Assembly (NCBI GenBank): GCA_963666055.2
Contig: CAXWPH010000015.1
Location: 1,376,001 to 1,440,000, forward strand
Source of the DNA: Acidobacteriota bacterium
Lineage (GTDB): Bacteria > Acidobacteriota > UBA890 > WLXD01
Length of the DNA stretch: 64,000 bases
Reading direction: 5' to 3'
Of the stretch, positions 27,562-44,871 are shown piece by piece. A model generated the notes under the pieces. The model was not told where the DNA came from, did no database searches, and worked only from the letters and a program-made list of their open reading frames with translations. Both the position numbers and the translations under genes were made by a program. Position 1 is the stretch's first letter. Each line of letters starts with the position of its first letter.

Positions 27562-30189
27562 ATGGAACCCGGCACTCGACTAGGTCACTACGAAATCCTC
27601 GCACCGCTCGGTGAAGGCGGGATGGGGGCCGTGTATCGAGCCCGCGACACCACGTTGGAGCGTGATGTCGCCATCAAGGTTCTTCCGGAGGGCTGGGCCA
27701 GCGACCCGGACCGGCTGGCTCGGTTCGAACGTGAAGCGAAGCTACTCGCCTCGGTGAATCACCCCAACATCGCCACCATCCACGGGTTCGAGGAATTCGA
27801 CGGCGTGCGCTTCATCGCCATGGAGGTCGCCGAAGGCAAGAGCCTTGCTGACCGGATCACGGCAGACGGCCGCATCCGACCCGACGAGGCTCTCGACATT
27901 GCCCGCCAGATAGCCCTGGCGCTCGAGGCAGCTCACGCGGCGGGCGTCATCCATCGCGACATGAAGCCGGCCAATGTCCACGTTGCAGCCGACGGCACGG
28001 TGAAGGTGCTGGATCTGGGGCTTGCCAAGGCCTACGAAGAGGATGGATCAGCCTCTGAGGCCTCGCAGAAGTTGAGCGAGTCACCCACGATGATGGAGGC
28101 TACGCGAGCCGGCGTGATCATGGGTACGGCTCCTTACATGAGCCGGAGCAGGCGCGCGGCAAGCCAGTAGACAAGCGCACCGACATCTGGTCGTTCGGCT
28201 GCGTGCTTCTCGAGATGCTGACCGGACAGCCGACGTTCGCCGGCGAGACGGTGAGCGACGTGATCGCGGCGATTCTCGAGCGCGAGCCCGACTGGGACGC
28301 GGTGCCCGACGATGTTCCTTGGAGGATCGTCGACCTGCTTCGACAGTGCTTGGTGAAGAACGCTGATGGACGGTTGCACGACATCGCCGACGCACGCATC
28401 GGCATCGTCACTGCCATCGCGGATCCGGAAGGCGGTGATGCCCCGCCCGCCCGATCTGATCAGGCCGCAAAGCTCTCATGGCGACGGGCGATTCCGACGC
28501 CGGTGGCAGCTGCAATGGTGGTGGTCGCTGCCGTCGCGGTGTGGGTTGCGACGCTGGGATCCAGCGGATCGCCTGCACCACCGATGACCACCAAGTTGAC
28601 CGTCGAGCTGCCCTCGTACGTGCAGCTGCAGGCCGGCGGGGCCCCCTCACCCCTGGCGATCTCGCCGGACGGCAGGCACCTGGTTTACGGAGCCCAAGAG
28701 GCGGGCGTGTACCGGCTCTATCTGAGGCGGCTGGATGAGCTGTCCGCCACGCCGTTGACCGGCTCCGAAGGTGGCTACAATCCCTTCTTCTCGCCGGATG
28801 GCCAGTGGATCGGAGCTGCGCGGGGCGAGCTGGGCTCCGGACGACACCATCATCCTGTCGCCGGGTCTCCAGACCGGTCTGGCGCGAGTGCCTGCGGCCG
28901 GGGGAGAGCCTGAAGCCCTGACGACGGTGGATTTCGACGACGGGCAGGATTCGCACCGCTGGCCAGAGGTGTTGCCGGACGGCAAAACGGTGGTATTCAA
29001 CATCATCGTCAGTTCGCAATACGACGAGGCAGAGATCGCGCTGCTTTCCCTGGAGACCGGGGAGATCACCGTGCTGCCGGTGGTCGGAGCGGACCCCAAT
29101 TACGTCTCCTCCGGCCATCTGATCATGGGGCGGGGAGAATCGTTGGTAGCGGTGCCCTTCGACCTGCAGCGGCTCGAGGTAACGGGCTCTGCCGTTGTCG
29201 TGGTGGAGGACGTATTCGTCACCGCCGGCGGGCCCGGGTCAGCGTTCTTTGCGGCCTCCGCCAGCGGAACGCTCGCCTACACGCCTATTCGTCCGAACGA
29301 TCGCAGGTTGGTGCTGGTTGATCGGCGTGGTCAACAGCGGCCAATACAACTGGAGCCAGGACCGTTCCTTACGCCGCGCTTCTCGCCTGATGGTCAACAG
29401 ATCGCCTACGAAATCGACGATGACATCTGGATCTACGACCTGACTCGGGAAACGTCCGACCGGTTCACTACGGATCCTGCGATCGACAACACCCCGTTAT
29501 GGGCAGCAGACGGTGAGAGTCTCGTGTTCAGCTCCCATCGGGTCGGGTTTTCGGACCTTTTTCAGAAGCCAACGACGGGGCGTGCTCCGGCTGAGCTCTT
29601 GGCAGCGAGCGTGAACTACCAATATGCCGGCTCTTTTTCTGCCGATGGACGCTTCCTCTTGTACGCCGAGCAGGGACTTACTACTGACTGGGACATCTGG
29701 GTGCTGCCCATGGCGGAACCCGACAAGCCCCGACCGTTGATACAAACGGAGTTTGCCGAGGTCCAACCAAACTTTTCAACGGACGGGCAGTGGATTGCAT
29801 ACCAGTCTGACGAATCCGGTGGCGATGAGATCTACGTCGCGCCGTTTTCCGGCGAGGGTAGACGGGTTCGGATCTCGGGCGACGGTGGGCACTCGCCGTT
29901 CTGGGGACCCGATGGAAGCGAGCTCTTCTTCTGGAGCCAGACCACCAACAGGTTGATGGCCGTTCCGATCTCGTTTGAGCCGGAATTTCAGGCGGGGACG
30001 GCGCAATCGCTGTTGGCCGGCGACTACCTCGTGACAAGCATTACCGGTCGTCTCCAACGAGACTTCGACATTGCGCCGAACGGTGAGGAGTTCGTGATGA
30101 TCCGGGAGAGCCAGCAGGAGGCCCCGGACATCGTCATCGTCCTCAATTGGTTCGACGAGCTGAAGCGGCTCGTGCCGACGGACCCTTAG
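27562..30189 (+). pseudogene. Ser/Thr protein kinase with TM segment and TolB/PD40 propeller, frameshifted twice
   Basis: GEGGMG, VAIK, HRDMKPAN, DLGLAK, GTAPYMS; 1-nt loss near 28143 (AGCCGGAG for AGC-CCG-GAG); apparent deletion/frameshift near 28812; ends NWFDELKRLVPTDP. Confidence 0.88.
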
Positions 30190-33939: not shown

Positions 33940-35928
33940 TTACGGCAAGCCCAGCGCGACCCATTCGGCCGGGTAGTCGCGGCCGCCGATGGCCACCACG
34001 ACGTACTGTTTGCCGTCGTGCAGGTAGGTCATCGGCGCGCTTGTCGTGCCTGCCGGCAGCTCCATCTCCCAGATCGTCTCGCCGGTGCTCTTGTCCAACG
34101 CGCGGAACATGGTTCCCCAGTGACCGCGGGCGACGCCTGGCATGGCGTCACTCCCCTCGCCGATGAACAGTATTGTCTTGGTGACGAGCGGTGCCGCCCG
34201 GTTGGCGATGCCGAGCGGCGGAAGGTCGAGATCTTGCAACATGGGGTGATTGCGTGGGCCATCACCAACCGGGACCATCCACATGTGCTCACCCTCGTTC
34301 ATGTCGATGGCGGTGAGTCGCCCGTAGGGCGGTTTGGTGAGTGGGAGGCCGAACGGAGTGGCCAGTTCCTGATGCCGCTGTCGCCAGCCGCGACCGGCTG
34401 CCCCTGCTGGTGCCCTCTTGATCACGTAGTCCATCGTCGCGTCGCCGGTGGCTGCGACCATGTCGTTGATGTACGGGAGCGTGTGCGACGCGGCGTAGAA
34501 CACGCCGGTCTCCGGATCGAACGCCGGAGTGTGCCAGTTCGCCGCACCCCAGGTTCCCGGTACCACGATCGTGCCGTTGGCCGCCTCGTCCGCCAACGAC
34601 GGCGGCGTGAAGATCGGACCGGTGACGTACTGATTCATGATCCTGAGCGCCTCGGCCCTGAGCTCGGGCGTGAAGTCGATCAGGTCGTCCTCGGTCAAGC
34701 CCTGGCGGTCGAACGGTGGCGGCTTGGTCGGAAACGGCTGCGTCGGCGAGGTCTGCTCGCCGGGAACCGTCGATTGCGGTACCGGCCGCTCTTCGATGGG
34801 CCACACCGGCTCGCCCGACTCCCGATCAAAGACGTAAACAAACCCGGTCTTGTTGGGCTGCATCACCGCCTTGATCCGCTTGCCATCGACCGTGATGTCA
34901 CCGAGAACAGGGGCGCCGATGTTGTCGTAGTCCCAGAGATCGTGATGAACCATCTGGAAATGCCACACGCGCTTGCCGGTCTTGGCGTCGATGGCCACAA
35001 GGCTGTCGGCGTACAGGTTGTCCCCGGGCCGGTGGCCTCCGTAGAGGCTGTTGCTGGGAGCGGTCAGCGGCACATACACGTAGCCGAGCTCTTCGTCGGC
35101 GCTGAGCCCGCACCAGGCACCCATGGCGCCCCCGTACCACCACGAGTCACCCCAGGTGTCCTCGCCGAACTCGCCCGGCCGTGGCCTCACGTGGAACGTC
35201 CACATGAGCTCGCCGGTACGCACGTCGTAACCCCGTACATCCTCCGGAGCGGCTTCTTTCTTGTTTCCGAAGTCGCCACCGCCACCGCCGTTCCCGGCAA
35301 CGACCACAACGTCGCCGACGACAACCGGGCCGCCGCTCGACCAGAAGTTCCCTGCCCACGGCAAGTCGCGGTCGAGGTCGACGCGCCCGTCTTTGCCGAA
35401 GTCAGGGTAGTACGTGCCGGTTCTGGCGTTCAGGGCGTAGAGGTACCCGGCTCTCGCCACGAAGACGCGCCGGTCGGTGCCGCTCTCCCAGTAGTCGAGG
35501 CCGCGGGAGCTCGAGCCCCTCATGCCTTCCGGGGTGCTGTCGAACGGCTCCTGTCCCCAGACCGTCTTGCCGGTTCCGGCGTCGAAGGCCTCCACCAGCC
35601 CGACGCCGTTGGGGGCGTAGAGCACCCCACCGACCATGATCGGCGTCGACCGCAGGTTGTCGTTGACGTTGAGATCGGGGAACGCCTGTTTCAGCTGGGC
35701 GGTTACCTTGGGGCGACGCCAGAGGATCTCGAGATCGCCGACGTTGTCGAGATTGATCTGATCAAGAGGCGAGTACCTGGTGAACCCCTTGTCCCCGCCG
35801 TAGTAGTGCCACTCGCCCACCCGCTCCGGCGCGCTCTCCTGGGCCCGAGCTATCAGGCCCGTCGCCATGACAAGGCCCACACACAGGGCCGTCCTGATCG
35901 ATCGTTGGATCCCCAGCATCCCCGACAC
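33940..35928 (-). CDS. PQQ-dependent dehydrogenase (glucose/quinate type, soluble)
   Basis: RYSPLDQI, WHFQMVHHDLWDYD, WPIEERPVPQS, PPYG. Confidence 0.9.
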   Translation of the reverse strand: MSGMLGIQRSIRTALCVGLVMATGLIARAQESAPERVGEWHYYGGDKGFTRYSPLDQINLDNVGDLEILWRRPKVTAQLKQAFPDLNVNDNLRSTPIMVGGVLYAPNGVGLVEAFDAGTGKTVWGQEPFDSTPEGMRGSSSRGLDYWESGTDRRVFVARAGYLYALNARTGTYYPDFGKDGRVDLDRDLPWAGNFWSSGGPVVVGDVVVVAGNGGGGGDFGNKKEAAPEDVRGYDVRTGELMWTFHVRPRPGEFGEDTWGDSWWYGGAMGAWCGLSADEELGYVYVPLTAPSNSLYGGHRPGDNLYADSLVAIDAKTGKRVWHFQMVHHDLWDYDNIGAPVLGDITVDGKRIKAVMQPNKTGFVYVFDRESGEPVWPIEERPVPQSTVPGEQTSPTQPFPTKPPPFDRQGLTEDDLIDFTPELRAEALRIMNQYVTGPIFTPPSLADEAANGTIVVPGTWGAANWHTPAFDPETGVFYAASHTLPYINDMVAATGDATMDYVIKRAPAGAAGRGWRQRHQELATPFGLPLTKPPYGRLTAIDMNEGEHMWMVPVGDGPRNHPMLQDLDLPPLGIANRAAPLVTKTILFIGEGSDAMPGVARGHWGTMFRALDKSTGETIWEMELPAGTTSAPMTYLHDGKQYVVVAIGGRDYPAEWVALGLP

Positions 35929-36104
35929 CTCCTGGTTACGGATTCCCTAGGTCGTTGAAAGTCGGTGCCCTGAGCGCCCGAGCCTTCCGCGCAACACTCT
36001 ATTCGCGCCACAGCGCCCAAGCGAACCCTCTGGGAGGTGCCGCAGGCAAAACAGTTGCCAGGGTGCCGAAGAACTCTGGCCCACTAGCGTTGTTCAACAC
36101 CCTG

Positions 36105-37073
36105 CTAGAAGGTGGCGATCGGATTCAGTGGGGATCCCGTTCCGCCGGGAACGCGCAGGGGCGCCGCCGTCAGCAGAAACTCCCAACGGTTCTGCCGTGC
36201 TGCCTCCGCCGCAACGTCTTCGAGATCGAGGTTGTCGAAGATCGGCATACCCAACGCCACCAGCGCCGGGACGTGGACCGGATGGGTCTCGCCTTCGACA
36301 CCCGATGGGAACACGTCGGCGGCCGAGTCGCTCCCGAGAATCGCGACGCCGCGCTCCTTGAGCCACTTGATCGTCGAGGCATGGAGTCCCGCCTCTTGTT
36401 CTTCGACGACCCATGGGCCGCTCTCGTCTCGCAAAGCCCACCGCCCGGTGCGGATCAGTACGACGTCTCCCGCGCCCACCGTGACCTGCGCTTGCCGCTC
36501 CCAGGCCTCCAGATCTTCGATGTAGATCGGCGTGCCGCTGGCGAGGTAGGGAACGTTCTTGAGCCGTGGGATATCCATCAGAATGCCGCGCGTAAAGATG
36601 CCGTGGCGAGCCGCCGTCACCGCCAGCTGCCCGCATCCGGCCTCGGTCACGCTGCTGCGAGCATAGCCGTTGTACGTCTTCCCATCGTGAAAGCGATGGC
36701 AGAGCGCATCCATGTGGCTGTGAGCATATCCGTGGAAGACCACGCCGATATCGTCGACCGCCCACGGCCCCTCAGTGGCGCCATGCAGCAGCATCTGGTG
36801 GCGATAGGGATTGCCGTTGTCGGGACTGCTCTCGGTGAGAGTGTCATGCGCCATCGATACCGAGATGCCCTTCGTTACCAGGGCTGCGGCTGCTTTGCGC
36901 TGCTGCTGCGTGATCAGATTCAGGGTGCCGAGCTGGTCGTTGTCTCCCCAGCGTCCCCAGTTGGAGAGCTCCGTCATCCAACGGTCATAGGTGGCGCGAT
37001 CCACCGGCCTTGGTCCCTGTGCCGAAAGCGGCGTCGCCAAGAGTAGAACCAAGCCAGCCGTCCAAATCTTCAT
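36105..37073 (-). CDS. Cyclase family (kynurenine formamidase-like) exported protein
   Basis: SNWGRWG..DQLGTLNLI, HG-x-x-HSHMDALCH, IRTG, GGTGSPLNPIATF. Confidence 0.88.
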   Translation of the reverse strand: MKIWTAGLVLLLATPLSAQGPRPVDRATYDRWMTELSNWGRWGDNDQLGTLNLITQQQRKAAAALVTKGISVSMAHDTLTESSPDNGNPYRHQMLLHGATEGPWAVDDIGVVFHGYAHSHMDALCHRFHDGKTYNGYARSSVTEAGCGQLAVTAARHGIFTRGILMDIPRLKNVPYLASGTPIYIEDLEAWERQAQVTVGAGDVVLIRTGRWALRDESGPWVVEEQEAGLHASTIKWLKERGVAILGSDSAADVFPSGVEGETHPVHVPALVALGMPIFDNLDLEDVAAEAARQNRWEFLLTAAPLRVPGGTGSPLNPIATF

Positions 37074-37279
37074 CGTGTGCACCAGACCTCCCGACGGATT
37101 CGATGCTGAGCGCAGACTCTGCGCGACCGAGTGTGTGCTTTCTCCATATCGAAGACAGCACACTAGCAGAGAGCAAGCCTGCATCGCCCGAGCTTCGGGT
37201 ATGCTCACCATGGCGTCGGTGTTGAGCCCCGGCGGCTCGCACAGCCGCCTGCCAGCCACGGATCGTCGGAGTCTGTCCC

Positions 37280-38431
37280 ATGAGCATCGCCGCGGAACGC
37301 CTCGACGCGTTCGCCCTGGCCCGACCGACCGCCGTTCCATGGTTCCTGTGGGCCGTAGCGTTCGCGTCCACGTCGGTGTTGGTCGGGGTGGTCTGGGACA
37401 TCTCCTGGCACTCGACGATCGGGCGCGACACTTTCTGGACCCCGGCGCATCTGGCGATCTACCTGGGCGGCGTTGTGGCCGGTCTCGCTTGTGGGGGCCA
37501 CGTCTTGTGGCTGTCGTTCATCGCCCCGGCCGAGAAGCGGGCGTCGTCCGTTTGCTTTTGGCGCTGGTTCTACGGTCCGATGGGCGCCTGGCTGTGCATC
37601 TGGGGGGCGTTGGCGATGATTACCTCGGCGCCATTCGACGACTGGTGGCACAACGCCTACGGTCTAGATGTCGAGATTCTGAGCCCGCCGCACATCGTCC
37701 TCCTGTTCGGAATCATGGCGATCCAGGTCGGGGCGCTGGTCATGGCGCTGGCGCGGCAGAACCGCTTCCCCGAGGATCGCGCACTGCCCTGGATCTATGC
37801 CTACACCGCCGGCCTGTTGATCCTCGGACTCGACACCGCGGCGTCGGAGTACCTGGCGCGGCCCAACCAGTGGCACAGCCAGGAGTTCTTCACCGTCAGC
37901 GCGCTGCTGTTTCCGCTGCTACTGGTGGGTGCTGCCAAGGGCGGTGGCCTGCGATGGCCGGCGACCGCAGCCGCCGGCGTCTACATGACCTTCAAGGTCG
38001 GCATGATCCTGGTCCTACAGTTGTTCCCCGCCACACCGATGCTGGCGCCGATCTATAACCCGGTGGACCGTATGGTCCCGCCGAGCTTCCCGCTCTTGCT
38101 GGTAGTAGCGGCAGTCGCCATCGACCTGTTGTTGGGGTGGCTCGATAGGCGCTGGCGTTGGTTGCAGGCACTGGTGATCGGCGTCGTCTTCCTGGCGGTT
38201 CACTTTGTGGTTCAGTGGCTGATGGGCGATCTGCTGCTGACACCGCTGGGGCGCAACGCCCTCTTCGTAGCCGACCGGTTCTCCTACATGGCGCAGCCCG
38301 GCGACTGGTGGTTCTCGTTCTGGGGGCGCACTGCGAACGCCGGAGGTATGGCCATTGCCGCCGTCATCGCGGTGTTTTCCGCCCGCGTGGGGCTGAGCTG
38401 GGGCGTCTGGATGGAGCGCGTGCAGCGGTGA
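37280..38431 (+). CDS. Polytopic membrane protein with PmoC/AmoC-like D-x3-H-x12-H and D-x3-H-x13-H motifs
   Basis: DISWHSTIGRDTFWTPAH (D40,H44,H57) and DDWWHNAYGLDVEILSPPH (D120,H124,H138); about 9 hydrophobic helices. Confidence 0.75.
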   Translation: MSIAAERLDAFALARPTAVPWFLWAVAFASTSVLVGVVWDISWHSTIGRDTFWTPAHLAIYLGGVVAGLACGGHVLWLSFIAPAEKRASSVCFWRWFYGPMGAWLCIWGALAMITSAPFDDWWHNAYGLDVEILSPPHIVLLFGIMAIQVGALVMALARQNRFPEDRALPWIYAYTAGLLILGLDTAASEYLARPNQWHSQEFFTVSALLFPLLLVGAAKGGGLRWPATAAAGVYMTFKVGMILVLQLFPATPMLAPIYNPVDRMVPPSFPLLLVVAAVAIDLLLGWLDRRWRWLQALVIGVVFLAVHFVVQWLMGDLLLTPLGRNALFVADRFSYMAQPGDWWFSFWGRTANAGGMAIAAVIAVFSARVGLSWGVWMERVQR

Positions 38432-39887
38432 ACGCCCTCCGCACCGTGGGGGCAACTGCGGCTCCGGCGACGGTGGCACTCGCCCTGTTTGTTGCCCTGC
38501 TCGGCCCGCCCCGTGCCGACGCTCATGTGGGTAGCCCGAATGTCTTCTTCGAGGGAATGGCGGGGCCCTATCCAGTGCGGGTCATTATTCGTCCGCCGGG
38601 TGTCGTGCCCGGCCTCGCCGAGATCGCGGTCCGGCTACAGGCGCCAGTAGACGCGGTCAGCATTCGCTTGTTTCGCTGGGATGTCGGCGAGCAGGGCGCG
38701 CCGCCGAGCTCTACTCGGCCGCGCTCTGGTTGATGACCACTGGGGCACACAGCGTCGAGGTAACGGTGCAAGGTCCCGAGGGCGAGGGTCGTGCGCTGGT
38801 GCCTTTCGAGTCGATCCGCCGCGAGATATTGGAAATGGAGCGCGGGGTTGCGGCCATGCTCGTCGGCATGGGGCTGTTCCTGTTCGTCGGCGCCGTCACC
38901 ATCCTCGCTGTCAGCGTGCGCGAGAGCACGCTCGCTCCAGGAGAGAACGCGGACGCCAGGCGCCGCTGGCGTGGGGCGGTCGCGGCCGCTGTTGCCACCA
39001 TCCTGTTTGCCGCCATGCTCTGGTTTGGCTGGTATTGGTGGAGTGACATCGATGCGGCCTACCGGTTGGCTATCTTCGAGCCCATGCCGACCACGGCGAC
39101 GGTCGAGACCATTGCCGGGGCAGCAGTGCTCGATCTGGCGATCACCGACCAGCGTTGGATCGATGGTGGTTGGTCGCCGCTGATCCCCGACCACGGGAAG
39201 CTCATGCACATGTTCCTGGTGCGCGACGACCTCGGCGCCTTCGCCCACGTGCATCCGGTACCCGCCGACGATTCCAGCTTCCGGCTGCGGATGCCGCCTC
39301 TACCGGAGGGTAACTATCGACTCTATGCCGACATCGTGCACGAGAGTGGCTTCAGCCAGACCTTGGTCAACCAGATCGAGCTGCTGTCGCCGGCTGCCGA
39401 GGTAGCTGAGCCAGGTGCTACACCCGTGCCGGGGGAGCTGCCTGCGGTCGATCCCGACGACTCATGGACGGTAGGCCTCCACAGCGGTGACGCCGTGCTG
39501 TTCGATGACGGCACGGAGGTTGAATGGGTGCGTCCCGCTGGCCCCATCGTGGTAGGCGACGACCTCACGCTCGAGTTCCAGGTACGCGATGGAACCGGGC
39601 AGCCGGTCGCGCTCGAGCCCTACATGGGCATGCTGTCGCACAGCGCCATCACACGTGAGGACGGCGCCGTATTCGTTCACCTGCATCCGACCGGCAGCAT
39701 CTCGATGGGGGCCCTCATGGTGGCAAGCGAGCGCCTCAATGTGGCAACCGACCACATGGCCCCCCGCGTGCCGGGCCGCGTCGCCTTTCCCTACGCCTTT
39801 CCTCGGGCAGGGACCTATCGTGTCTGGGTGCAGGTAAAGAACGAAGGCCGTGTCTACACAGCCGACTTCGAGATGACGGTCCAATAG
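38428..39887 (+). pseudogene. Exported His-rich, two-TM putative copper-binding protein, frameshifted near 38706
   Basis: GTG start overlaps the upstream stop (GTGA); signal peptide ADA|HVGSP; frame change GAPP/ELYSAALWLM; two TM helices; DHGKLMH, HVHP, PYMGMLSH, HLHP. Confidence 0.75.
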
Positions 39888-41376: not shown

Positions 41377-43107
41377 TCAACGGTTGATCTCGTAAGCGTG
41401 CCCGGTCAGTTGCCAGCGCACCATCGACACCGGGATCACCCCCACCGCGGCGAACTCGTCCATGAAGCCTCTTAGCGAGAATTCGTCGCCGCGCTGGATT
41501 GCACGCTCTGCCAGGAGCCGCTCGATCTCGATCTTGCCGATCAAGTAGCTGGTGCCGTAGCCGGGTTGCGTGAGGTAGAAGTGCTCCTCGCCCTGGATCG
41601 TATCGCCGTCGGCCGGTAGCCAGCCACGCGGCACCCACTCAGAGGCGAAGTCGCAGGCCTCCTGATGGGTCCATTCCTGCCCGTGCTGCATCAGGCCGCC
41701 GAGGGCCCGGGCGGCGCGTTGGGCCAGCAAGATCCAGATCAGCTCACGGGCACGAGGCTTATCGTCGAAGGCGCCGGCGTGCATCATCATTTCCTCGACG
41801 CCCGTGGCCATTCCCTCCGAACGTCCGTCGTAGATGTTGAACAGCGACGGGACGCGTCGAATCGGGCTCTCGTGCGGCTCCTCTCGCATCCTCGCCAGGT
41901 CGAACCAATGGTAGCCGTGCGTGCGCATGACCTCACCGTTTCGATATTCCACCTCAGAGAAGAAGCCGCGCAGGCCATCCGGCCTCGTGGGCGGCGCGAA
42001 TCTGCCGATCCGCTCGCGCAGCGCGCCATCCATGTAGTCACGGATCGTCAGGATCTCCTCCTCTTGAAGGAAATCCATGTATTCGGTGACCGCCGCGTTG
42101 AGCGCGGCGTCGTATTCCTCGGCGTTCTGCATACGCGTCAGCTGTGGCAGGTGGCGATTGCGGTTCTCCACCAGTCGCAGGCTGGCGTGGGCGCGCCACA
42201 GCTCGCGCCGCATCAGCGTCACTTCTTCTTCCCAGGTATACGGAACGAGGTGCACGTTGTTCAGGTACCAGGTGTAGTGGTCTTTGCCGACACCCGATAT
42301 TCCAGTTTTCGACGGAAGCTCCCCCTCGAGCCACTGAGCGAAGCGATCGGTCGCGGCAATCGCGCCCAGCACCGTCGTGTCGAGCGCCGCGCTGGTGCCA
42401 GCCACGTCTTGTCCGAAGCTCGCCAGATCGCCACTCTGGCCGCGCACCGAGCGGATGCCCAGACGCCACAGGTCGTGGCCCGCACCCACGAGGTTGCCGC
42501 GCGCCTGTTCCAGCAGGGGCGGGATCACGCGGATTCGCTCGGTGAGCTCGGCGGCGGCGGATGCCGAAAGCGGATACTCGTAGGTCCAGGTGTCGATCCA
42601 GCCGTGGATAACCGGCCCCTCGTGCGCCGGCACGTCGGACTCCTCCGGGAAGAGCATCACGTAAAACGCCGGGTTGTTGGCCCACGGTCGGCGCACCCGG
42701 TGGTCGAAGTCGAGGCCGTTCAGCTCCGCCTTCACCAGTCGCCAGTCGATCTGTTGCTCGACCGGCCAGCCGGCGGGCTCGATGGCGTCGAGGCGCTCGT
42801 GGTAGGCGCGCAGCTCGCTCTGCTGCTCGGCCATGGCTGCCGCCGTGTAGTCGGGAACACCGTCGTCGAGCCGCGGCGCCGCGAACTGTCTCCACTCTTC
42901 AAACAGCGTCAGCAGGGCTCCGTAGTCGTCCTGGGCGCCGGCCGCGGCCGGCATGGCTGCACCGGCCGCCGGCATGGCTGCGCCGAGCACGAGCGTGCCG
43001 ATGAGGACGGCGGGCGCGAAACCCGCACGCGCAGAACGGAGCTCAGCTCTCACGGTTGCCTCCAGGATCGTGTCTCGGATCGCTCGCAACGGAGCTGTGT
43101 GTCTCAT
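41377..43107 (-). CDS. DUF885 family exported protein
   Basis: DW..AELNGLDF..RPW, PGYGTSYLIGK, FMDEF..GVIP; ATGA-coupled to the upstream paralog. Confidence 0.78.
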   Translation of the reverse strand: MRHTAPLRAIRDTILEATVRAELRSARAGFAPAVLIGTLVLGAAMPAAGAAMPAAAGAQDDYGALLTLFEEWRQFAAPRLDDGVPDYTAAAMAEQQSELRAYHERLDAIEPAGWPVEQQIDWRLVKAELNGLDFDHRVRRPWANNPAFYVMLFPEESDVPAHEGPVIHGWIDTWTYEYPLSASAAAELTERIRVIPPLLEQARGNLVGAGHDLWRLGIRSVRGQSGDLASFGQDVAGTSAALDTTVLGAIAATDRFAQWLEGELPSKTGISGVGKDHYTWYLNNVHLVPYTWEEEVTLMRRELWRAHASLRLVENRNRHLPQLTRMQNAEEYDAALNAAVTEYMDFLQEEEILTIRDYMDGALRERIGRFAPPTRPDGLRGFFSEVEYRNGEVMRTHGYHWFDLARMREEPHESPIRRVPSLFNIYDGRSEGMATGVEEMMMHAGAFDDKPRARELIWILLAQRAARALGGLMQHGQEWTHQEACDFASEWVPRGWLPADGDTIQGEEHFYLTQPGYGTSYLIGKIEIERLLAERAIQRGDEFSLRGFMDEFAAVGVIPVSMVRWQLTGHAYEINR

Positions 43108-44738
43108 CGAGAAGATTCCGGCCATAGCTCGTTGATCTCGTCGTCATGCCCGGTCATCTCCCAGCGGATCAGCGACATGGGGATCACCCCTGCGGCATAG
43201 AACTCGTCCATGAACTGTTTGACGGTGAAGTCGTCGCCCAAGTGTTGCGCTCGGTCGCGTAACAGCTTCATGAAGTGGACCTTGCCGACCACCATTTGCG
43301 CATGCCAGCCGACATGCACCAGGGTAGTCTGCATCTCACCCCACAAATGAGGGCTGTCATCGAGCAATTCTCCGTGCGGCGCATTCGCCACGGCATACTC
43401 CATCGCCTCCGTCAGGCTCCAATCCCGACTGTGCATATACACGTCTGCGAGCGCCCGGACGGTGCGAAACGCCGCCTGCTCGTAGGCGACTTCTCGTGCT
43501 CTGCGCGGCCGCTCGTCGAGATAGCCTGCGTGCATGAGTAGCTCCTCGAAGGCGAACGCCAGTCCCTCCAGACGGGCGACCGCCATGTCATAGGGCCCCT
43601 CGTGCTCTCTGGCGCCCCGAATAGGCCGGTCGTCGTGTCCGGCTCTGAGCAAGTCGAAGTGGTGCCCCACCATCTCGTGGGTCTCTTCCATGAGCGATTC
43701 GCGGTGCGAAAAATTGAAGAAGTAGTCGTGCCTTTCGGGCCATGGGCGGCGGGTGGCTCGCAATCGACCCTGCCGATAATCGTCCACCACGATGTAATCC
43801 TGAACCGTGAAGATCTCGTCGTCGCGGATGAAGCTCATGACACGTTCGAGGGAGCTCAGGACGCTGCGGCGACGCTCCTCCTGCGACGCCACGGGGGTGA
43901 GCGGCGGAAGATTGCGATTGCGGTTTTCCTCGAGCTTCTGGAACGTGATGACGCGATTGTCCTCAAGCTCCACGATTGTCCGAATCTCATCCCAGGTATA
44001 GGGAAACAGATAGACGTTCTTCATCATCCAGTTGTAGTTTTCGATTCCGAGCCCGGCTGAGGCGGTCATCTCGCTCCGGTTTTCCTCGAGCCAGCCGAGG
44101 TAGCCGTCGATGGCGGCCCTAGCTGCCTGGGCATCGGGTAGGAGATCGGGATGGTATTCGCCTAGCTGGACGATGAATTCCGCCAAGCGATCATCGCCTT
44201 GCTCGAGCTCATGAATCGCGAGGATCGCCAGGTCACCGGGTATTCGGGATAGGTCGCCGCCACCGAGATTGCCTTTCGCCTGCTCGTAGTATTCCGGGAC
44301 TGCCCGCAGCCTCGATTGAAACTCGGCAATGCGCTCACCCTCGATAGGCAGGCCGGGGAGCCTACCCAGGCCGCCCCTGCCGCCGGCGTAGAAAGCGGGA
44401 TCACGCACCCATGGACGCAGAACCCGAAGCTCGAACTCGAGCCCGTTCATCTCGGCACGGACCAGGTGGTAGTCGACCTGATCGGCAACCGACCAGCTGC
44501 CTATGTCGATCGCCGCCAGGCGACGCTGAAAATCCTCTAGGTTGGCAAACCGGGTCTCCATGGCCGAACCGTAGCCGGATAGATCACCGCGGTACTCGTT
44601 CTGCGAGAAGCTGCGAAACTCCTCGAAGAGGCCTGAGAGATCTGCGTAACCAGCACCCTCTTGCCCGGAGACGTCGGAGTTGAGCCCGGCGAGGAGGAAG
44701 GACAGAAGAACAACTCCGGGAACCGATACGCGTTTCAT
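43104..44738 (-). CDS. DUF885 family exported protein (tandem paralog)
   Basis: DYHLVRAEMNGLEF..RPW, HEMVGHH, FMDEF..GVIPMSL. Confidence 0.78.
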   Translation of the reverse strand: MKRVSVPGVVLLSFLLAGLNSDVSGQEGAGYADLSGLFEEFRSFSQNEYRGDLSGYGSAMETRFANLEDFQRRLAAIDIGSWSVADQVDYHLVRAEMNGLEFELRVLRPWVRDPAFYAGGRGGLGRLPGLPIEGERIAEFQSRLRAVPEYYEQAKGNLGGGDLSRIPGDLAILAIHELEQGDDRLAEFIVQLGEYHPDLLPDAQAARAAIDGYLGWLEENRSEMTASAGLGIENYNWMMKNVYLFPYTWDEIRTIVELEDNRVITFQKLEENRNRNLPPLTPVASQEERRRSVLSSLERVMSFIRDDEIFTVQDYIVVDDYRQGRLRATRRPWPERHDYFFNFSHRESLMEETHEMVGHHFDLLRAGHDDRPIRGAREHEGPYDMAVARLEGLAFAFEELLMHAGYLDERPRRAREVAYEQAAFRTVRALADVYMHSRDWSLTEAMEYAVANAPHGELLDDSPHLWGEMQTTLVHVGWHAQMVVGKVHFMKLLRDRAQHLGDDFTVKQFMDEFYAAGVIPMSLIRWEMTGHDDEINELWPESSR

Positions 44739-44763
44739 AACCACCTCCAGCGCCTTTCGATGA

Positions 44764-44871
44764 CCGCCTCGGTGCCGGCGGGATTGCGAGACAGTGTATC
44801 GAGCCAAGGACACCAGGCTGAGGCGCGAGGTGGCGCTCGAGCTGAAGCGCCTCGTGCCGGCGGACCCTTAA
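44764..44871 (+). pseudogene. Collapsed Ser/Thr kinase gene with 5' and 3' ends joined
   Basis: LGAGG..VYRAKDTRLRREVAL fused to ELKRLVPADP*; last 33 nt match 30157-30189 at 30/33. Confidence 0.8.

Follow-up and report, generated by a model that had tools for sequence, protein, structure and literature searches.

The gene at positions 37280..38431 of the window analysed here, a stretch of 64,000 nucleotides from an Acidobacteriota genome given on its forward strand, encodes a polytopic membrane protein of 383 aa in which a PmoC-type core and a PmoA-like domain appear to be joined in one chain. The single-chain architecture and the spacing and conservation of the metal ligands in the core are established here. 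The C-terminal half is very probably homologous to PmoA and the fused protein is likely a distant branch related to the CuMMOs; the chances are even, in our judgement, that together with the product of the partner gene directly downstream it forms a copper-dependent membrane redox enzyme, as we predict.

Results

The fused gene, located on the forward strand from its open reading frame, its relatives and dN/dS, evolves under purifying selection, with dN/dS of 0.10-0.11 in comparisons with three same-genus copies, and belongs to a large family without a name. Among 7996 scored candidates 7277 were found to be relatives at E 0.001, and those passing this threshold form 2523 clusters at 50% identity; the named ones come mostly from Gemmatimonadota and Acidobacteriota, with some Verrucomicrobiota, one Eisenbacteria and one Marivirga. 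Within the phylum the gene is carried by 17 of 301 genomes at least 85% complete, a tally that takes in one genome from unpublished data (G046), of which all other claims made here are independent. Seventeen of 18 loci match the fused profile end to end as a single stretch, with one fused ORF and one partner gene, in contrast with the CuMMOs, in which xmoC, xmoA and xmoB are three separate genes. At one locus (G123:C1:2131810-2132954) the main gene was found in two pieces, the junction of which, at profile positions 203-210 and off the domain border, is likely a frameshift. Longer fused forms were not detected by a database search at E<=0.001, which is weak evidence.

Searches of Pfam, NCBIfam and PDB sequences with the protein and its profile gave nothing above cut-off, and family searches returned only weak AmoC matches, to 17 of the 80 members at E<=1 and with 6e-4 as the best value. 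In the ESM Atlas the whole protein led to unnamed clusters (0.97) and the C-terminal half to an unnamed lead (0.79), a scan of viral contigs for HmoC gave no match, and a full-text search, whose coverage leaves out most subscription journals, found no paper on the family. Two alignments were built: A1, with 80 rows (the query and 79 of 120 listed close proteins), and A2, with 148 rows (the query, 59 close matches and 88 of 150 listed representatives, chosen by length), from which the conservation counts below are taken.

An AlphaFold2 model computed on A2 (pLDDT 95.1, pTM 0.93) places four long helices before residue 162 (21-46, 55-80, 101-127 and 136-162) and a separate helical domain from residue 168. 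The four helices make up the PmoC-like core, residues 21-162 (37340..37765, forward strand), delimited by the model, HHalign and VIA-align: residues 15-165 align with 64 XmoC sequences at an HHalign probability of 91.8 (P 7.6e-7), and PmoC 7s4m_C superposes on this half with VIA-align at Z 5.0 and rmsd 4.1 over 145 residues. The accessible text of PMC13058606 gives the AmoC ligands as D136, H140, D146 and H153 for CuC and as N207, H211, E218 and H225 for CuD. The CuC-type set of the fused protein, D40, H44, (D50) and H57 (37397..37450, forward strand), reproduces the first of these exactly, with His at +4 and +17 from the Asp and a further Asp at +10. The CuD-type set, D120, H124, (D130) and H138 (37637..37693, forward strand), has the spacing of N207/H211/H225, with His at +4 and +18, which is also that of N212/H216/H230 in HmoC; here Asp120 replaces an Asn kept in 63/63 XmoC rows, and the middle acid D130 stands one place earlier than E218 of AmoC.

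Conservation of both sets is high (D40 132/132, H44 122/134, D50 125/133 and H57 132/134; D120 144/146, H124 138/146, D130 134/146 and H138 140/147), and 119 of the 132 rows that cover both sites have the full set of six core ligands. In a minority branch of A2 (P0180, P0191, P0199, P0203, P0208, P0217, P0222, P0240, P0245, P0260 and others) several of the His ligands are replaced, for example by Gln or Glu, with D40 and D282 still present; these are possibly metal-free or other-metal paralogues.

The C-terminal half, residues 166-383 (37775..38428, forward strand), is predicted from VIA-align and profile alignment to be a PmoA/AmoA-like helical domain, with a fold common to the ECF S-components. 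With the whole-protein model, no Foldseek row reached E<=0.001 (0.18 for the best of PmoA/AmoA), the top probabilities being those of PmoA/AmoA rows (0.85-0.99; 3rfr_B 0.99, TM 0.55). When 996 Foldseek candidate chains were re-aligned with VIA-align, 12 PmoA/AmoA chains came out at Z 12.2-13.3 (rmsd 4.1-5.0, 191-208 residues, 11-13% identity), followed by 3chx_B at Z 8.8 and then by the top non-CuMMO row at 6.6, scores that are to be read with the aligner's own warning that Z below about 13 can stem from an arrangement of helices that is widespread. In most PmoA rows the match starts at model residue 8-24 and therefore borrows some residues of the N-terminal half, but AmoA 9leg_A covers model residues 168-382 only, on chain residues 28-244 (Z 12.7, rmsd 4.1, 191 aligned).

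A wide search over 48161 representatives gave a different order. ThiT 5edl_A matched over residues ~165-383 at Z 10.0 (rmsd 3.5, 155 aligned), followed by FolT at 8.8 and PanT at 8.2, with at least six S-components at Z 7.7-10.0 over model residues ~162-383; the one PmoA representative among the rows listed, 3chx_B at Z 8.8, stood below or level with these (10.0, 8.8). PmoC was absent from the top 50 of this search, an absence that does not exclude it. The predicted fold of the C-terminal half thus appears common to PmoA/AmoA and the ECF S-components: in the model the subunit A fold is recognisable, more weakly in Foldseek and in the wide search, and so is the six-helix S-component fold, at scores below those of PmoA/AmoA, which on the models is the closer and longer match once better PmoA structures are compared.

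The first-pass annotation had proposed that a PmoC-like N-terminal half is fused to a trimmed PmoA-like C-terminal half. The fusion is supported by profiles and by predicted fold: on splitting the protein at about residue 165, as had been suggested, the N-terminal half goes to XmoC and the C-terminal half to XmoA at nearly full length, and the top structural matches covering the latter are PmoA/AmoA chains, so that the proposed resemblance to that fold stands. Trimming is only light, since the match takes in almost the entire PmoA core (XmoA 43-263).

In sequence the kinship is far fainter. The XmoA set (127 sequences: HmoA from plasmid NC_018022.1, 47 relatives and 79 from metagenome loci) is biased to actinobacterial HmoA relatives. 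In local mode, HHalign of the C-terminal half (148 rows) against this set gave a probability of 4.0% and P 0.01, over 198 collinear columns covering XmoA 43-263; against 48 XmoA sequences the probability was 1.7%. As many as 6 of 60 block shuffles scored as high as the real half, as did 25 of 100 helix-order shuffles, which retain whole homologous segments and of which one also aligned at least 150 columns. Global mode gave a score of 16.3 (P 0.0037, 203 columns), and 8 of the 17 columns conserved in both sets were identical. In 100 shuffles the top score was 14.1, and the number of identical columns never exceeded 4. The residues in common are spread over several helices: A228, T229, the family W at 244, P271, D282, L319, G371 and G375. 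Cross-controls were null (N-terminal half against XmoA, P 0.24; C-terminal half against XmoC, P 0.6).

PF02461 did not match the protein and is not one of the 25 families listed for 80 members. By single-sequence HMM scores the family could not be told apart from other membrane proteins of the genome, and the reverse search, with the C-terminal half of the family against XmoA, was likewise without separation; with the XmoA HMM the top 10 rows were all C-terminal halves of family members, though the groups were not separated. The XmoA invariants G70/D71/W72/W75/D77/W78/D80 and P218/E219/Y220/R222/E225 (the PEY-R motif) are not kept as such. In place of the acidic Trp-rich motif of PmoA, the alignment has a family-specific polar cluster, E190/N196/H199 (37847..37876, forward strand; E190 115/147, N196 97/148, H199 123/148). 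Against the best-scoring 30 BioY sequences, or against nine PF12822-type S-components (the best 9 of 38 matches), the C-terminal half showed no profile likeness (P 0.18-0.76), a weak test, because these two sets barely detect each other (P ~0.2). Taken alone, the sequence profiles speak only weakly for the A-like half (HHalign probability ~4%).

The helix motif that had first drawn attention to this half, FPLLLVVAAVAIDLLL, starts at 38087 and was located as described, in the 383-aa ORF at 38087..38125 (forward strand; F270 at 38087, P271 at 38090-92, D282 at 38123-25), part of it lying in a predicted helix (274-287) of the AlphaFold model. Its F-P-x10-D pattern proved conserved among homologs, in 136/144 non-gap rows for F270, 142/144 for P271 and 141/147 for D282. 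The counterpart in XmoA, W144-P145-x10-D156 in HmoA numbering, has the same x10 spacing and is W in 121, Y in 4 and F in 2 sequences at the first position, with P in 125/127 and D in 127/127; HHalign, from which the register is taken, pairs P271 with P145 and D282 with D156. The strict pattern of F or W, P, ten hydrophobic residues and D is found in 2 of the genome's 419 multi-helix ORFs, this protein being one of them. With a 13-position XmoA matrix, residues 270-282 are the top window of the protein, and 19 of the 419 ORFs (itself counted) score at least as high, so that the 13-mer on its own is suggestive only, at about 1 in 20. The caveat of chance similarity attached to the motif when it was first described holds for the 13-mer by itself; as an account of the PmoA likeness at large, mere chance is largely refuted. 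Of the eight site residues, at least one is changed in 15 A2 rows, all of which retain D282; this would point to a structural role, and D282 as a metal ligand was rejected on the same grounds. The Pro...Asp helix would most likely be a structural signature from a common ancestor with PmoA, with no part in metal ligation.

The partner gene is broken in this genome. Its 5' piece (38428..38733, forward strand), identified by ORF and same-genus comparison, begins with a GTG overlapping the stop of the fused gene and encodes a signal-like leader and a predicted mature N-terminal His at 38524; the 3' piece (38733..39887, forward strand) encodes the last part of the first Ig-like domain, followed by two membrane helices and two His-rich Ig-like domains. 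By comparison with three same-genus copies, the frame is lost within the first domain, at a 34-base deletion near 38705. The deleted form is present without differences in contigs of 4/4 sequencing runs examined, from two studies, which makes an assembly slip unlikely; any of these runs may be the source of this assembly. The stop of the 5' piece, at 38731-33, shares bases with the ATG that encodes a conserved Met and begins the 3' piece, and the latter could restart there without leader or His1. In a genus-mate (G001; L005:1259-1261, minus strand) this N-terminal domain of the partner is interrupted independently by an in-frame TAG, seen from the assembly alone, and for the main gene no match was found in another (G002). 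The partner is broken in its N-terminal domain in two of four genus copies compared, and either the module is decaying in the genus or the cell can do without the His1 domain. Both pieces still have low dN/dS (0.07-0.21), and the breaks are therefore likely recent.

Main gene and partner are tightly paired across the family, a partner with a leader and His-Val/Ile-Gly lying directly downstream in 76 of the 82 loci, out of 84 examined, where at least 350 bases were available. Eight His are invariant in 61 aligned partner copies (of 64 long ones), including His1 in 61/61 rows, which were themselves selected by that motif. In the model of an intact relative's partner (468 aa, pLDDT 94), a beta domain is followed by two membrane helices and then by a further two beta domains. 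With the leader and His1 in front, this order of parts corresponds to the layout of PmoB. The first domain matches CrdA 9ll2_A (Z 9.3, rmsd 2.6, 99/108) and CopC 5icu_A (Z 8.0), scores that tie with those of unrelated Ig folds (CBM56 Z 9.9), and sequence matches are weak (CrdA E 0.15; CopC Pfam in 3 of 61, best E 0.026). Profile likeness to PmoB extends over only 25 columns (probability 4.9), and PmoB was not among the fold matches listed for the 468-aa model, searched whole, an absence that does not exclude PmoB.

As regards genomic context, PF02461 and PF04896 have no match in this genome, which is 95.7% complete, and PF02461 was found in 0 of 301 phylum genomes by a search that did match the HMO plasmid. 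EcfT (PF02361) was not found in this genome either, with controls detected in 11 of 14, and no EcfT/EcfA module was seen among 22 neighbour clusters scanned; a BioY gene without a detected EcfT does occur here, so solitary S-components exist. No third gene is conserved beside the pair: the largest other neighbour clusters, a two-component system and thioredoxin, reach at most 7 of 80 loci, and no copper genes were found among the 22 clusters. In some Gemmatimonadota (L025, L039, L054, L066, L069, L070 and L072; upstream), thioredoxin/redoxin genes lie near the pair in 7/80 loci and DsbD/CcdA-type genes in 5/80, and could possibly provide electron supply, perhaps in one lineage only. In 3/80 loci (L049, L078, L086) the pair is immediately preceded, on the opposite strand, by a gene for a NicO-like metal transporter.

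Within the window itself, a PQQ-dependent dehydrogenase gene and a kynurenine-formamidase-like cyclase gene (33940-37340, minus strand) are divergent from the pair; related loci do not have them among their conserved neighbours. A tandem pair of DUF885 genes, encoding 582 and 569 aa, lies at 41377-44813 on the minus strand. At 27562-30189, a Ser/Thr kinase and beta-propeller gene is present as three overlapping ORFs (27562-28170, 28203-28913 and 28771-30189), which suggests frameshifts.

Discussion

The nearest known proteins resemble the two halves of the fused protein separately. PmoA/AmoA (PF02461; 4phz_B, 3rfr_B, 9leg_A) is like residues 166-383 in predicted fold (Z 12.2-13.3) and in having an aromatic-Pro-x10-Asp helix, an A-T helix start and a terminal G-x3-G helix, but identity is 11-13% without a Pfam match, the acidic Trp-rich and PEY-R motifs of PmoA are replaced, and PmoA is the product of a separate gene, whereas the A-like domain here is fused behind a PmoC-type core. 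PmoC/AmoC (PF04896, NF041641, TIGR03078; 7s4m_C) is like the N-terminal half in the D-x3-H-x12-H of CuC and the x3/x13 spacing of CuD; the N-terminal half differs from it in being the four-helix core only, with a beta-hairpin inserted, the CuD Asn changed to Asp and the acid between the CuD His pair shifted by one, and it scores 15 bits against a curated cut-off of 319. Since neither the gene structure nor the sequence family of subunit A is that of a CuMMO, the fused protein is not filed as one: a CuMMO proper was rejected, and at best the protein acts as part of a CuMMO would. Oxidation of methane or ammonia was likewise rejected as its role, no match to PF02461 or PF04896 having been found in this 95.7%-complete genome, nor to PF02461 in any of the 301 phylum genomes.

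Two other groups are similar in part. The ECF S-components (ThiT 5edl_A, FolT 5d0y_A, PanT 6zg3_H, BioY 4dve_A) share the helical fold of the C-terminal half (Z 7.7-10.0) but differ in the shorter match, in null profile results with two sets and in that the C-terminal half is fused to a metal-site core. S-components have an Ala-x3-Ala motif in helix 1; residues 166-191 here hold no strongly conserved Ala pair, the conserved small residue being G178. CopC/CopD and CrdA-type copper proteins (5icu_A, 9ll2_A) are comparable in the mature N-terminal His and Ig-like first domain of the partner and in the pairing of a membrane protein with an outer copper-type protein. The fused protein is, however, not CopD, no match to the CopD family having been found for it or among the 25 families listed for 80 members, and the partner is anchored by two central helices and has two extra His-rich Ig-like domains. 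CrdA, according to the accessible part of PMC9182242, binds via Met and without His.

The main competing explanation accepts the same ancestry but assigns another job, in which the pair, in the manner of CopC/CopD or YcnI/YcnJ, would take up copper at the outer face and transport it or pass it on, with the PmoC-type sites as a relay. We consider this explanation possible, at clearly less than even probability. It accords with the first domain of the partner, which matches CrdA (Z 9.3, with a weak sequence match) and CopC (Z 8.0), though these matches tie with many unrelated Ig folds (CBM56 Z 9.9), and with the mature His1 and seven further invariant His; the fold of the C-terminal half is that of the substrate-capturing S-components, pathway genes do not travel with the pair, and NicO is nearby in 3/80 loci. 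Set against this are the lack of a match to CopD or to a transporter family, the absence of copper genes from the 22 neighbour clusters and the presence of both catalytic-type sites at exact spacing, which a simple relay would not need. It is improbable, in turn, that the C-terminal half is a ligand-binding domain of S-component fold without special kinship to PmoA, only the N-terminal half being related to the CuMMOs. Nine S-component or related chains do match residues ~162-383 in the wide search (Z 6.5-10.0, ThiT top), sequence support for PmoA kinship is weak, and the fold recurs in unrelated functions according to the part of PMC11109136 available. PmoA/AmoA nevertheless scores 2-3 Z units higher, over 191-208 rather than 148-177 residues (two runs of one aligner), and its identity is 11-13% against 6% for ThiT, yet 10-15% for other S-components; the profile test, though weak, favours XmoA over two S-component sets, and EcfT was not found in the 95.7%-complete genome.

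That the PmoA likeness arose by chance among hydrophobic helical bundles is already largely refuted and now hardly credible. The 13-mer is matched by 19/419 membrane ORFs, and there was no significant Foldseek, Pfam or PDB sequence match; but the VIA-align scores drop from Z 12.2 to 6.6 for non-CuMMO rows and the alignment with XmoA is collinear end to end. The strongest argument against chance is that the two halves independently match neighbouring subunits, in the order C then A.

For the preferred reading, a copper-dependent membrane redox enzyme, the mechanism would run as follows. Two metal ions, probably copper, would be held near the outer face at D40/H44/H57 and D120/H124/H138, the A-like domain would pack on the core as PmoA does on PmoC and may offer a pocket near E190/N196/H199, and the outer His sites of the partner would either replace PmoB or deliver copper. 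The redox substrate would likely be something other than methane or ammonia. A bolder proposal, which we regard as rather unlikely, is that of a widespread single-chain PmoC-PmoA copper oxygenase in ordinary heterotrophs, sister to all known CuMMOs, where an Ig-fold partner replaces PmoB and where PmoA and the ECF S-components are of common descent.

The likeness of the C-terminal half to both PmoA and the ECF S-components hints, on predicted structure, at a fold link absent from the main text of the S-component survey PMC11109136, which, as far as that text goes, has 0 mentions of pMMO, PmoA, AmoA, monooxygenase, methane or copper. As residues 165-383 of the model match both groups, there is also a hint that PmoA itself may have an S-component-like fold. 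If the bolder proposal is true, PmoA descends from the ECF S-component fold or has a common ancestor with it, and methane and ammonia oxidation would be linked to a vitamin-capture scaffold. CuMMO trees have been rooted on other CuMMOs, with archaeal AMO as the outgroup in PMC6215863, in the accessible text of which neither 'fusion' nor 'fused' was found; a family of thousands in which a two-metal core of PmoC type is joined to a domain of PmoA type would be an outside relative for the study of CuMMO origins. Whether the active site is at CuC, CuD or both is still debated, judging by the available text of PMC12801151 and PMC13058606, and a one-chain protein with both ligand sets could offer a simpler system in which to study metal occupancy and the effects of mutations.
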